NCBI GenBank assembly: GCA_024679065.1
Contig: JAGIQG010000040.1
Location: forward strand, 10,850,001-10,914,000
Direction of reading: 5' to 3'
Length of the DNA: 64,000 nucleotides
Origin: Sphyrna mokarran
Lineage: Eukaryota
Each line of letters starts with the position of its first letter. Positions within the stretch are counted from its first letter, which is position 1. The notes under the pieces were generated by a model, which did no database searches, was not told where the DNA came from, and worked only from the letters and a program-made list of their open reading frames with translations. Shown in pieces: positions 25,975 through 44,559 of the stretch. Position numbers and translations under genes: made by a program.

Positions 25975-27520
25975 ACTTCCAGTTGAAGAGTTTCCCGTGT
26001 CTCTGAGCGGCTGAACTGGGGAAGCAGAGACGGTCCTGCTGCTATTTCCTTTCTTGACCATGAATCGTCGCTGTCACACGCCCGGGCGCTGCTCTGCCCG
26101 GTGTCACCTCTTGCCCGCTCCGGCCCTGTTGCTGCTCGTTGGCGGAACATCAAAGTTCCGGAAAATTACAAAACGCAGAAAATTTTAATTTAATGTTAAT
26201 GTTGGTGGCAAATCCTGAAATTTGAACAATTTCGAAATTCAAAGCATTTGGAGACGGATATTATACTCATTAAACCATGGATACACGGTGAGAGCCCTAC
26301 TTGAAGCAAATTCGGATTCCTGGAGGACATATTAAACTGGCTCCACAAGCTCGATTCTTGTGTGCATAAATTTATATCCGCATTGCCCCCGCTGTTTCCT
26401 CCTGTTAAAATGAGCAATGACACATTATATTCTTTTTTTTGCTGACTTGAACAACGAAATGTATTGCATTAACCTTCAAAGTAATTTAACATTTGGCAAT
26501 GATGTGATTCGAGCATAGTCTTCCTCAGTTATTGCTGTGCTGAATTTAGTGACATAAACTTGTCATCACCGCTACCAGAGGAAGCAATTAGTGTCATATC
26601 TGGTGCTGCCCGGAAACTGAATAAATGGAGTGAGACAAAGTCATAAATCCCGTTCAGTTTCCTCCACCAGTAGACGGTGAAAGGCAGGGAATTGGGGTGG
26701 ATGGGAAGAAGTGTGGGTTGGGTTGGATAATATTTGGGAAGGAGTTGAAGTGTGTCTTGAATGGTAGAGATTTGGAGTGGATGGAGAAGAATGGGGAGTT
26801 GTTCTGATGGTGAAGGGTGGGGAGTTGTGGTCGATGGTGAAATATGGGAGTGGGATTGTATGGTGGGAGGTGTGGGGTTGATTTGGATGATAGGAATTTG
26901 GTGGTGAGTTCTAGTGGACGGTGAATGGTAGGGGGTCCAGCTGGATGGTGGAGGATGGGGAGTTTGGATGGTGGAACGTGTGAGTTGGGTTGGATGTTGT
27001 GTGGCGAGGGGAGGTGTTGGTGTGAAGGGTGGAGAGTTAGAGTACATGGTAGGAGGCCTGGGGTTGGGTTGGATGGTCGAAGTTGGGTGGTGATTTCTGG
27101 TGTTTGGTGAATGGTAAGGAGTTGGGATAGATAGGTGGGGAGTTGGAGTGGGTGGTAAGAGGTGTGTGTTGGGTTGGATAGTAGATGTGTGGGGAGGAGT
27201 TAGGTTGGATCGTGGAAGATGCGTGTGGCCGAGGCTAGGTGTTCTCTTTCTGGGGATGGGTTGGAACTGAAATAAAATCTTCTCTCACAAATTAACCTAT
27301 GAATTCTCTGGAACTCTCTGTGTCCAGTCCACGATGAATCAAAGGAACTAACTGATTGGAATCTACAGTAATATGCTTGAACTTTGCTTTTCAATTTTAT
27401 AATTCGTGTCCATTGCTTAGTCTGGTTTATGAACAGAAGAGTGACTCAGGGTGTGTGTCTCACTGTGAGTTTTTTTTACTTAGAACATACGATAAACAAG
27501 TTTGATGAATGATTACCAGT

Positions 27521-28422
27521 TCACTTTTTAATGAATTGCACAATTCCAGTGAATGGAAGTTTCACCACGTTCTTCAGATCCTCTCTGAATTGTGTCTGGG
27601 TCACAGCATAAATACATGTGTTCGTACAACAACTCAGGAGTTGCATCATAAATCCCAGTTCCTGCACAAATAATGGCAATGCTGCACTGATGAACCTGAT
27701 GAATTCCAATCGGCTACAAATAGAATAGACAAGGAACACTGACCACAACAAAACAAAATTTCCCGATATTGCAAATAGTAAGATAATGGATTTCCTTCTT
27801 TTTTCTATCTCTGGGTCACTTTGACTTCCCCCACTTTTGTGGGTCCGAAGTCTCCTGCGGACTTTGCTCGAAACTAGAATGTGTTTCACAATTATAACAT
27901 TGAGCAGCAGAATCAACACGAAAGGAATAAACGGGGTTAAAATATAATGCAGAATTTCAACTATTGCCCAGGCTTGTGATTCGGAAACAGTGTAATGTAC
28001 AAAACAAAACCAAGGACTATTATAGAAATAATATGTATTCCCATACATGAAATACCAAAAACTGTTCTTTATACTGAACACCACACTCCCTGTACCGAGA
28101 ACCACAGTTGCAGTTTTCTTGGTGCAGTATTTTATTTTCAGTTTCTGACCAGCAATGGCCACGAATCGGTCAAAGGTGAAAGCGACAGTGAACCAGACAG
28201 AACAGTCAGTGACTGTGTAAAGCAGGACGGCGTGGATATTACACACTCTAATGTGAGCCATGAACAGAAATTGATAGGAAAAACAGATAGGAATTTGCCG
28301 CAATATGAGATCGATGATAATGACCAGGAGATCGGCTGCTGACATGCAGATAAGGTAACGTGTGACACATTTGGAAAGGCCACACCTTCCTCGAGACAGG
28401 ATAAGAATCGTCAATAAGTTCA
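27521..28422 (-). CDS. GPR139-like GPCR gene 3, coding exon 2
   Basis: Acceptor ccttacag|tg; open frame, DRF, PWFC, CCTNTCIY. Confidence 0.92.
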
Positions 28423-29159
28423 CTGTAAGGAAGAGAGAGACAATTAACTCATATTTCAGATTGAGAACAGGAGCAGCGCATCTATCGGATTTCTGTGGAA
28501 TATTTGCTCCATCTATCAGAATCCACTTGCCAACCAATCAACTCTATCTTCTTACACATCCTGAAGCGTTCTCGCATCAGAGTTAGTAATTTCTTTCAAG
28601 TTCACTTCTAATTTTTAAGTCTTTAAAAAAAAGTAATTTGTCTCTTTTTTCAGCAATAATCATTAAATAATCATTTTACTGAAATATTATTTCAGTTTCA
28701 TATTTTGTGATCTGCTCCATAATAAAAAAGCAGAGCAGGAAAAGGTGAAGTGTATTGGACATTATTCCATGTTTCAGAGTTTATTTGTGATCTATTTGCC
28801 TGCGCAAATTTTCACAGAACAGCAACATTAAACACATGCAAAAGCCGCTTCCCATATATTTTCCTGATTCATCCTGTAATTCAGTTCAGAAAGCCGTCCG
28901 CCTGTTCCCATGAAGGGGAGCTGAAGGTTGAATTCATTTTCTGTGATAATCTCCGTATTTAATTAAACAGAGTTAAAACTATTGGGGCCATACACGCTGG
29001 CTGCTTTAAAGTATTTGTGATCAGTGAGTCTGCTTTAGATCAAATATTACCTGTAATGTTTTCAGTGCATTGCCAGATACAGGCTACGAATGTTCCACAG
29101 AATGCCATCAGTAATTGTATTTCATGGATCGGGTGATAATGCAGTGAAGTGTTACTCAC

Positions 29160-29250
29160 CAGTGACACCAACTACAGCGAGGAGCGGGTAATAAATTATT
29201 TGGATGTTGTAAAATACCCAAAGAATACGATGTTCAACAATCCAGAACAT
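29160..29250 (-). CDS. GPR139-like GPCR gene 3, coding exon 1
   Basis: MFWIVEHRILWVFYNIQIIYYPLLAVVGVT, G|gtgagt. Confidence 0.85.
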
Positions 29251-29338
29251 AGCAGGACTTCTTTGAGATCAAAAATCGCTGTCTGAACTGGTGATGATGT
29301 TCACGTAACCATTGCTACACACACTGTAAATATTACCT

Positions 29339-41953: not shown

Positions 41954-42041
41954 AGGTAATATTTACACTGTGTGTAGCAATTGTTACGTGAACATCATCA
42001 CCAGTTCAGACAGCGATTTTTGATCTCAAAGAAGTCCCGCT

Positions 42042-42138
42042 ATGTTCTGGATTATTCCACTTCAACTTCGTATTCTTTGGGTATTTTACGACATCCAAAG
42101 AATTTACTACCCGCTCCTCGCTGCAGTTGGTGTCACTG
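42042..42138 (+). CDS. GPR139-like GPCR gene 4, coding exon 1
   Basis: MFWIIPLQLRILWVFYDIQRIYYPLLAAVGVT, G|gtgagt. Confidence 0.85.
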
Positions 42139-42889
42139 GTGAGTAATATTTCACTGCATTATTACCCGATCCATGAAATACAATTACTGATGGCATTCTG
42201 TGTAACATTCGCAGCCTGTATCTGGCAATGCACTGAAAACATTACAGGTAATATTTGATCTAAAGCCGACTCGCTGATCACAAATACTTTAAAGCAGCCA
42301 GCGTGTATGGCCCCAATAGTTTTAACTCTGTGTAATTAAATGCGGAGATAATCACAGAAAATGTATTCAACCTTCAGCTCCCCTTCATGGGAACAGGTGG
42401 ACGGCTTTCTGAACTGAATTACAGGATGAATCAGGAAAATATATGGGAAGCGGCTTTTGGAAGCTGTTGAATGTGTTTAATGTTGCTGTTCTGTGAAAAT
42501 TTGCGCAGGCAAATAGATCACAAATAAACTCTGAAACATGGAATAATGTCCAATACACTTCACCTTTTCCTGCTCTGCTTTTTTATTATGGAGCAGATCA
42601 CAAGATATAACTGGAACTGAAATAATATTTCAGTAAAATGATTATTTAATGATTATTGCTGAAAAAAGAGACAAAATACTTTTTTTTAAAGACTTAAAAA
42701 TTAAAAGTGAACTTGAAAGAAATTACTAACTCTGATGCGAGAACGCTTCAGGATGTATAAGAAGATAGAGTCGATTGGTTGGCAAGTGGATTCTGATAGG
42801 TGTAACAAATATTCCACAGAAATCTGATAGATGTGCTGCTCCTGTTCTCAATCTGAAATATGAGTTAATTGTCTCTCTCTTCCTTACAG

Positions 42890-43791
42890 TGAACTTATTG
42901 ACGATTCTTATCCTGTCTCGAGGAAGGTGTGGCCTTTCCAAATGTGTCACACGTTACCTTATCTGCATGTCAGCAGCCGATCTCCTGGTCGTTATCATCG
43001 ATCTCATATTGCGGCAAATTCCTATCTGTTTTCGCTATCAATTTCAGTTCATGGCTCACATTAGAGTGTGTAATATCCACGCCGTCCTGCTTTACGCAGT
43101 CACTGACTGTTCTGTCTGGTTCACTGTCGCTTTCACCTTTGACCGATTCGTGGCCATTGCTGGTCAGAAACTGAAAATAAAATACTGCACCAAGAAAACT
43201 GCAACTGTGGTTCTCGGTACAGTGAGTGTGGTGTTCAGTATAAAGAACAGTTTTTGGTATTTCATGTGTGGGAATACATATTATTTCAGTAATAATCCTT
43301 GGTTTTGTTTTGTACATATCACTGTTACCAAATCACAAGCCTGGGCAATAGTTGAAATTCTGCATTATATTTTAACCCCGTTTATTCCTTTCGTGTTGAT
43401 TCTGCTGCTCAATGTTATAACCATTAAACACATTCTAGTTTCGAGCAAAGTCCGCAGGAGACTTCAGACCCACAAAAGTGGGGAGAGTCAAAGTGACCCA
43501 GAGATAGAAAAAAGAAGGAAATCCATTATCTTACTGTTTACAATATCGGGAAATTTTGTTTTGTTATGGTCAGTGTTCCTTGTCTATTCTTTTTATAGCC
43601 GATTGGAATACATCATGTTAACCAGTGCAGCATTGCCAGCATTTGTGCGGGAACTGGGATTTATGATGCAACTCCTTAGCTGTTGTACAAACACATGTAT
43701 TTATGCCGTGACCCAGACACAATTCAGAGAGGATCTGAAGAATGTGGTGAAACTTCCATTCACTGGAATTGTGCAATTCATTAAAAAGTGA
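42890..43791 (+). CDS. GPR139-like GPCR gene 4, coding exon 2
   Basis: Acceptor ccttacag|tg; open frame; paralog of 27521-28422. Confidence 0.92.
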
Positions 43792-44559
43792 ATTGGTAAT
43801 CTTTCATTAAACTTGTTTATCGTATGTACTAAGGAAAAAAAAACTCACAGTGAGACAACACCCTGAGTCACTCTTCTGTTCATAAACCAGACTAAGCAAT
43901 GGACACAAATTATAAAATTGAAAAGCCAAGTTCAAAAATATTACTGTAGATTCCAATCAGTTAGATCCTTTGAATCATCGTGGACTGGACACAGAGAGTT
44001 CCAGAGAATTCATAGGTTAATTTGTGAGAGAAGATTTTATTTCAGTTCAAACCCATCCCCAGAAAGAGAACACCTAGCCTCGGCCACACACATGTTCCAC
44101 GATCCACCCTAACTCCTCCCCACACATCTACTATTCAACCCAATACACACATCTCACCACCCACTCCAACTCTCCACCTATCTATCCCAATTCCTTACCA
44201 TTCACCAAACACCAGAAATCACCACCCAACTTCGACCATCCAACCTAACCTCAGGCTTCCTACCATGTACTCTAACTCTCCACCCCTCACCATTCACACC
44301 AACATCTCCCCTTGCCACACAATGTCCAACCCAACTCACACGTTCCACCATCCAAACTCCCCACCCTCCACCATCCACTAGAACTCACCACAAAATTCCT
44401 ATCATCCAAATCAACCCCACACCTCCCACTATACAATCCAACTCCCATATTTCACCTTCGACCACAACTCCCCACCCTTCACTGGAAGGTAACACACGGC
44501 AGGCTTTCATCACGGAGAGTAACGGACACAAGTCATTTATCAAACGCTATCATGTTGCT

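Follow-up and report, generated by a model that had tools for sequence, protein, structure and literature searches.

What drives the divergence of two closely similar receptor genes that lie in opposite orientations in a shark genome, and is the pair the proper unit in which to ask? The genes, here called A and B, encode G-protein-coupled receptors (GPCRs) and lie in a 64,000-nucleotide stretch of the Sphyrna mokarran genome (assembly GCA_024679065.1, contig JAGIQG010000040.1, positions 10,850,001 to 10,914,000; hereafter the window) that, along with 17 tRNA calls and one exon each of zinc-finger and immunoglobulin type, contains four class A GPCR genes of a single family. An initial annotation of the window took A and B for young inverted duplicates of each other that diverge mainly on the extracellular side under diversifying selection on ligand specificity. 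We find instead that A and B belong to a subfamily of ~50 copies, 88–96% alike, and that the unit of diversification is this conversion-mixed subfamily rather than a duplicate pair. On balance we think it probable that, in this shark GPR139-like subfamily, gene conversion shuffles hypervariable outer patches while selection favours new outer surfaces predicted to change the binding of peptide- or protein-sized ligands. Both genes are intact, with two exons and GT-AG introns (A, 330 amino acids; B, 332 amino acids), and their parts are as follows, with transmembrane helices abbreviated TM and extracellular and intracellular loops ECL and ICL.

29160..29250, minus strand: gene A exon 1 (ATG, short N-terminus and most of TM1; short indel allele), ending at a GT donor
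28423..29159, minus strand: gene A intron, 737 bp
27521..28422, minus strand: gene A exon 2, from the last part of TM1 through the stop codon
42042..42138, plus strand: gene B exon 1 (long indel allele)
42139..42889, plus strand: gene B intron, 751 bp
42890..43791, plus strand: gene B exon 2
43027..43059, plus strand: B hypervariable patch in ECL1, codons 79-89 (A equivalent 28285-28253, minus strand)
43267..43332, plus strand: B hypervariable patches in ECL2, codons 159-180, on both sides of the conserved cysteine (A equivalent 28045-27980)
43591..43650, plus strand: B hypervariable patch at the top of TM6, ECL3 and the top of TM7, codons 267-286 (A equivalent 27721-27662)
26810..30155, minus strand: cassette of ~95% identity that comprises gene A, its upstream region and its 3′ flank
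41137..44482, plus strand: matching cassette around gene B
39993..41136, plus strand: B-type upstream flank, 60-74% like that of A (30156-31311)

A recount of the differences between A and B agreed with the annotation exactly: there are 24 amino-acid differences in exon 2, and 16 fall in the outer patches that it had named, two in ECL1 (sites 81 and 85, in B numbering here and below), six in ECL2 (159, 166, 168, 176, 179 and 180) and eight at the top of TM6, in ECL3 and at the top of TM7 (267, 268, 273, 275, 276, 277, 283 and 286). The in-frame two-codon indel in exon 1 is real, and ICL1, ICL2 and the C-terminus are identical at the protein level. Absent from the annotation were three substitutions in exon 1 (17, 20 and 28) and two in ICL3 (225 and 231). 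The introns differ at 24 of 737 sites (3.3%) and by two indels, and exon 2 differs at 38 of 902 (4.2%). The outer face carries 22 nonsynonymous differences and one synonymous difference (15 and none in the loops), in keeping with the claim that the two genes diverge mainly there. When nonsynonymous divergence was compared by domain with the intron, as the annotation had proposed, the proportion of nonsynonymous differences (pN) on the outer face of the pair, 0.088, exceeded that of the intron (0.033; Fisher p 6e-4), that of all silent sites (0.040; p 0.015) and that of the rest of the protein (p 9e-5).

A and B are not a sister pair: each has closer relatives than the other, the flanks upstream of the two genes belong to different types, and most of their differences are found across the subfamily. 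The copy nearest to A is at locus L035 and that nearest to B at L002; ranked by similarity among 34, B comes 16th for A and A 15th for B. Identity between the two drops sharply from ~95% to 60–74% about 910 bp upstream of the ATG, and the type of flank that precedes B is common to only one of 12 long loci. At 23 of the 27 positions that differ between A and B from codon 10 onward, both residues are also present in other copies.

The subfamily was delimited by searching the 2.77-Gb genome, in which the window lies on a chromosome-scale contig labelled G000:C994. A search with B returned 42 places at 88–100% protein identity, followed by a gap to 75%, and a search with the upstream DNA returned further copies, 11 of the 12 fetched loci carrying the subfamily exon 1. 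Copies that lie on small contigs could in part be alleles. The diversity analysis covers 32 intact copies, ten of the 42 having been dropped: L040 had no anchors, no exon 1 was found for L017 and L024, L039 and L043 had indels and stops, L011 and L029 were near-duplicates, and L006, L028 and L037 had stops (that of L037 at the last codon). Copies L043, L082, L086 and L090 each have a 903-bp frameshifted exon 2.

Among the copies, variants are extensively reassorted. Four-gamete incompatibility rises from 0.18 for sites at most 10 bp apart to 0.68 for those more than 800 bp apart (149 informative sites), and none of 2000 permutations was as clustered as the observed incompatibility. Six outer patches have 7–22 variants each and are nearly unlinked (pairwise distance correlations, r −0.19 to 0.29), and the combination of patches is unique in each of the 32 intact copies. 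About one third of copies carry a divergent intron tract (L005, L007, L008, L009, L012, L013, L015, L023, L026, L030, L033, L036 and L038); its staggered ends resemble nested conversion tracts from an older paralogue, for which no donor was found.

Across the 32 intact copies, amino-acid diversity is concentrated on the outer face: pN is 0.102 in the loops and 0.070 on the outer face as a whole, 0.010 in the helix cores and 0.015 in the inner loops, set against a proportion of synonymous differences (pS) of 0.037 and an intron diversity of 0.050. Silent diversity is not raised in the loops (0.041 versus 0.037 overall). With loop borders taken from an AlphaFold model alone the comparison is 0.104 versus 0.036, reversed in none of 2000 bootstraps, and with the ten copies from contig C994 only it is 0.130 versus 0.036. 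The excess sits in common variants and relative to silent sites: with linkage ignored, distinct outer variants exceed silent ones (odds ratio 1.87, p 0.002), and common outer variants exceed both intron and silent sites (odds ratios 2.0 and 3.15).

The annotation had itself raised gene conversion as an alternative source of the pattern, and conversion does occur and shuffles variants, but it was not sufficient in simulation to yield the excess. Under a null in which the outer face is wholly neutral and both conversion and CpG hypermutation act (692 simulations, the 150 best-matched kept), the real ratios were reached by none of the 150 and, among all 692, by four for the outer face and one for the loops. 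A harsher null added 5% doublet mutations and divergent donors (708 simulations, 591 after filtering); in these 591 runs the real ratio was reached by none for the loops, 12 for the outer face and two for pN/pS, and, when each codon was limited to one event, by none for the loops and four for the outer face. The loops have a pN over neutral of 2.30 in the real data, with null maxima of 1.6 (150 matched) and 2.21 (591). Variation is also sharply partitioned within the outer face: 58 of its 113 codons are without amino-acid-changing variation and nine carry at least four residues, a number reached in 0 of 150 and 0 of 591 null runs. In the A/B subfamily nonsynonymous divergence (dN) at surface sites is therefore above neutral divergence in a manner robust to recombination. 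Taken together, these statistics indicate that the outer face is likely under diversifying selection rather than relaxed constraint. The selection proposed in the annotation thus stands, as a property of the subfamily that survives the conversion nulls; ligand specificity as its target is putative.

Site models of the kind implemented in PAML, which the annotation had suggested, proved unreliable here. Fitted with our own GY94 code on one tree (log-likelihood under M0 −4256.53, versus −4256.55 from IQ-TREE), M2a gave an omega of 8.6 on 7% of codons with a likelihood-ratio test (LRT) statistic of 261; M8 versus M8a gave 260, and four segment trees gave 130. All 19 families simulated with conversion and no positive selection, several of them only loosely matched to the data, were also significant (LRT 12.7–176.8). 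The real M2a value lies above all 19. We have set these models aside as proof of selection and rely on tree-free ratios, because the models pass on every one of these families. Standard site models mislead on conversion-mixed gene arrays.

Where the variation sits on the receptor bears on what might be selected. Hypervariable codons are extracellular in 23 of 26 cases, versus 35% of all codons (p 6e-9). In class A receptors the rim is the contact zone of peptide and protein ligands and of foreign binders. Placing the sites on GPR139 and on an AlphaFold model, a check named in the annotation, confirmed that the variation is outer and located it at the rim rather than at positions equivalent to the GPR139 pocket. 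Of 17 agonist contacts taken from the accessible part of the GPR139 study (PMC8807744) and transferred by alignment, approximately so in ECL2, a single one, 269 (6x58), is among the hypervariable codons; diversity averages 0.06 at these pocket-equivalent positions and 0.16 at other outer codons, and many of them are conserved across 72 more distant shark relatives. Because the variation is at the rim and not in the pocket, the ligand would be expected to be of peptide or protein size.

The mechanism that we consider probable would run as follows. Copies would multiply by segmental duplication among tRNA-rich units; gene conversion would reassort short outer patches between them; purifying selection would keep the core and the inner face; and diversifying selection would retain new rim surfaces, leading to altered recognition of a large ligand. 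Ligand specificity would then be the putative target of selection, and the genes would presumably be expressed as a sensing repertoire.

Several observations weigh against this explanation. The 72 more distant shark relatives vary at the same sites (within the outer face, rho 0.60), which is compatible with tolerance as well as with recurrent selection. The structural model, which covers exon 2 only, is modest (predicted local distance difference test score 64.7), adding to the approximate placement of ECL2 noted above, and the main domain borders were drawn after the alignment had been seen. With linkage ignored, distinct outer nonsynonymous variants are not in excess of the intron (odds ratio 1.18, p 0.24), nor are multi-hit triplets (10 of 113 outer versus 16 of 233, p 0.32). 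Without the filter, the harsher null reached the outer-face ratio in 17 of 708 runs (loops 2, pN/pS 5). No intact full gene for held-out replication came from the 12 extra loci (three were frameshifted and nine lacked at least one anchor within the stretch). Finally, none of five other subfamilies shows a significant excess. These controls also vary more outside than in the core, none significantly above its own silent rate: in the subfamily of window member D the outer face stands at 0.066 versus 0.130 for silent sites, and in the others the ratio of loops to pS is 0.86–1.73 (P 0.12–0.74; 7 of 13 loci used for the C224 set and 5 of 8 for the C1548 set, with too few loci for C938). Their lack of a significant excess also implies that the method alone does not create the signal, and the A/B subfamily stands out among them.

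The alternative that survives best, although we regard it as doubtful, keeps the same selection and changes its target: the rim would diversify so as to evade some foreign binder (a protein of a parasite, microbe or virus, for instance), with no change in the true ligand pocket. The near-invariance of the pocket-equivalent positions beside a hypervariable rim is what escape would look like, the excess lies in common, shuffled variants, and its restriction to one of six subfamilies examined is as a recent arms race predicts. Against it, some 35 intact near-identical copies would seem to suit a recognition repertoire better, and so many kept copies fit escape less well because a binder needs just one susceptible copy; moreover, we know of no binder of this receptor rim.

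We judge it unlikely that positive selection is absent altogether, with unconstrained outer loops in which conversion and birth-and-death spread neutral variants. Such relaxation would account for counts of distinct variants that match the intron, for the five other subfamilies, where loop or outer-face pN is near or below pS, for the commonness of broken copies and for the inflation of tree-based tests by conversion. It is, however, the very model that was simulated, and the loop ratio lies above both null maxima; nor would it be expected that about half of the outer codons remain invariant in amino acid while nine accumulate four or more residues, which no null run produced.

Still less probable is that the patches need no selection and stem from mutation hot spots in place or from short tracts copied out of more distant paralogues. 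Some alleles do differ by two or four changes side by side (codons 81, 166, 176-177 and 283), and about one third of copies have the divergent intron tract. Yet silent diversity in the loops is barely different from that overall, A and B differ there by nonsynonymous changes only, the closest outside paralogue (75%), in a comparison that took in only a handful of possible donors, shares a codon with the subfamily at just 4 of 21 variable sites, and the excess persists against the null that includes donors and doublets when each codon counts as one event. The literal model of the annotation, a single recent inverted duplication followed by mutual divergence, has in its favour the opposite orientation of A and B, 13 kb apart in a common 3.3-kb cassette at ~95%, and is refuted by their closer relatives elsewhere, their different flank types and the subfamily-wide polymorphism of their differences.

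The receptors themselves are of class A. A and B match the 7tm_1 profile with 63.3 and 63.7 bits (cut-off 30.5), and the D and R of the D-R-x motif and both cysteines of the TM3-ECL2 pair are invariant in 74 sequences. Foldseek with the exon-2 model (TM2-TM7 plus helix 8) returned class A receptors (best E 4e-4) without singling out GPR139; the best solved-structure match by sequence is human GPR139 (PDB 7VUG/9M42), a weak one (E 7e-6). The only Pfam matches were 7tm_1 and, below threshold, nematode Srx, with no profile of a known chemoreceptor family (OR, V1R/ORA, V2R, T2R); TAAR lacks a separate Pfam test, and the nearest named relatives of A and B are GPR139-like. Shark relatives carry the RefSeq label 'probable G-protein coupled receptor 139', and the protein closest to the window receptors in the database, from Heptranchias, is 73% identical.

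We considered and rejected A and B as orthologues of GPR139. The genome's own GPR139 lies elsewhere (L081, G000:C749:56369656-56372682), scores 535.6 bits (E 5e-160) to the GPR139 PDB chain, against 28.8 bits for B, and falls outside the A/B family in the tree; one GPR139 orthologue was found, as opposed to hundreds of family loci. The contig that carries it also bears family members near 0.7-2.7 Mb. Of the agonist contacts listed in PMC8807744, W6x48 and the equivalent of H5x43 are kept in the window receptors and F3x33 is Y, but E3x32, R6x51 and N7x38 are replaced by L, F and F.

Outside sharks, the nearest relatives are GPR139/142-related orphans of salamanders, coelacanth and teleosts (XP_069092602.1, XP_005988539.1 and KAM4562537.1; profile E 6e-51 to 2e-39), which group with the shark family with support of 100/99 in a midpoint-drawn tree where the salamander sequence is a long branch of unsure placement. 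Unlike the shark receptors, these orphans form clusters of one to five members, with no large expansion among the entries looked up. Coelacanth and fish orphans of this kind, likened here by kind only, are called GPR210A/B in the accessible text of PMC6504862.

The family to which the subfamily belongs is large. Two protein searches of the genome gave 128 and 133 family places on 56 contigs without overlap, and an exact motif gave 206 matches versus none in a control, 69 of the first 100 lying outside both protein-search lists. The genome holds at least 330 loci; a rough capture-recapture estimate, biased by relatedness and including motif-only matches of which only a part was checked for intact frames, is ~1,000. 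Pairs of family loci with identical scores lie 1-2 Mb apart on G000:C994 (for example 5248263 and 6229393, or 9676196 and 11531425) and are either very recent segmental duplications or assembly duplication. In the protein database, 1825 clusters match at E ≤ 1e-10, and the best 120 of the 1825 are all from sharks. Members from the stingray Hypanus (P0189 cluster) are annotated 'vasopressin V2 receptor-like', so counts based on names will miss members.

Two kinds of familiar system invite comparison. The expanded vertebrate sensory and immune GPCR families V1R, T2R, TAAR, FPR and MRGPR are alike in clustered birth-and-death, young subfamilies and an outer-face excess; the A/B family differs in having no Pfam match to them, two exons, and variation at the rim rather than in the helix-bundle pocket. 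Diversification of the major histocompatibility complex (MHC) type is alike in that near-identical sequences have their short hypervariable patches reassorted and in that common alleles show a nonsynonymous excess, and differs in that ours occurs among dispersed GPCR paralogues.

Other features of the window are listed below.

4339..5229, plus strand: family member D, exon 2, 45% identical to B; its subfamily is one of the controls
17517..18416, plus strand: family member C (63% identity to B), exon 2, with its exon 1 near 15488-15578
40813-40895: tRNA-Leu(AAG) gene inside the B-type upstream flank

A fifth family member, 47% identical to B, lies just upstream of the window (L094:2687-3583, G000:C994). 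The 17 tRNA calls (12369-47600) occur in repeated, rearranged units interspersed with the receptor genes (for example 11760-13024 versus 33509-34762, and 21169-22805 versus 24336-25978), and tRNA calls are also present in 10 of 12 long subfamily loci. At 11000-11392 on the minus strand, apparently by itself, lies the last constant exon of an immunoglobulin heavy chain, including a secretory tail (C1-set E 2e-20; IgM/IgA chain matches E ~1e-43; polyA signal at 10972), and tblastn of the window plus 10 kb on each side gave no further immunoglobulin domains. A C2H2 zinc-finger array exon lies at 58599-59225 (minus strand). Decayed open reading frame fragments in both orientations (420-2939, 14281-14610, 54772-55631, 57886-58422 and 60925-61926) are presumably the ends of long interspersed nuclear element (LINE) reverse transcriptases, which they resemble.

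That duplicated GPCRs come under selection on their outer face is well known, and the unusual part here is the setting: a shark genome with no fewer than 330 loci of a single GPR139-like family, to which automatic annotation wrongly gives the name GPR139, and with one subfamily showing sharp, shuffled, rim-restricted hypervariability. In the accessible parts of the literature, the catshark is given eight OR or OR-like genes, three, three and two genes in other small families and 32 canonical V2R genes (PMC11979771), cartilaginous fishes are described as relatively poor in GPCRs (PMC8455134), and the supplements to the latter contain a single, unrelated GPR142 line. We found no published account of a shark GPR139-like expansion in the open-access literature, and the accessible portions of PMC11979771, PMC8455134, PMC6504862 and PMC12294341 do not describe one. 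Tentatively, since we hold it to be possible rather than probable, the ~1,000 GPR139-like receptors may form a fifth, shark-expanded sensing repertoire, in which the A/B subfamily would make combinatorial surfaces in the manner of the MHC by shuffling selected loop patches, and would serve to recognise peptides or proteins that vary, for example as cues to individuals, mates or pathogens. The finding makes it possible to ask by what means sharks sense cues that vary, whether chemical or immune, and indicates which residues could be swapped to address this.

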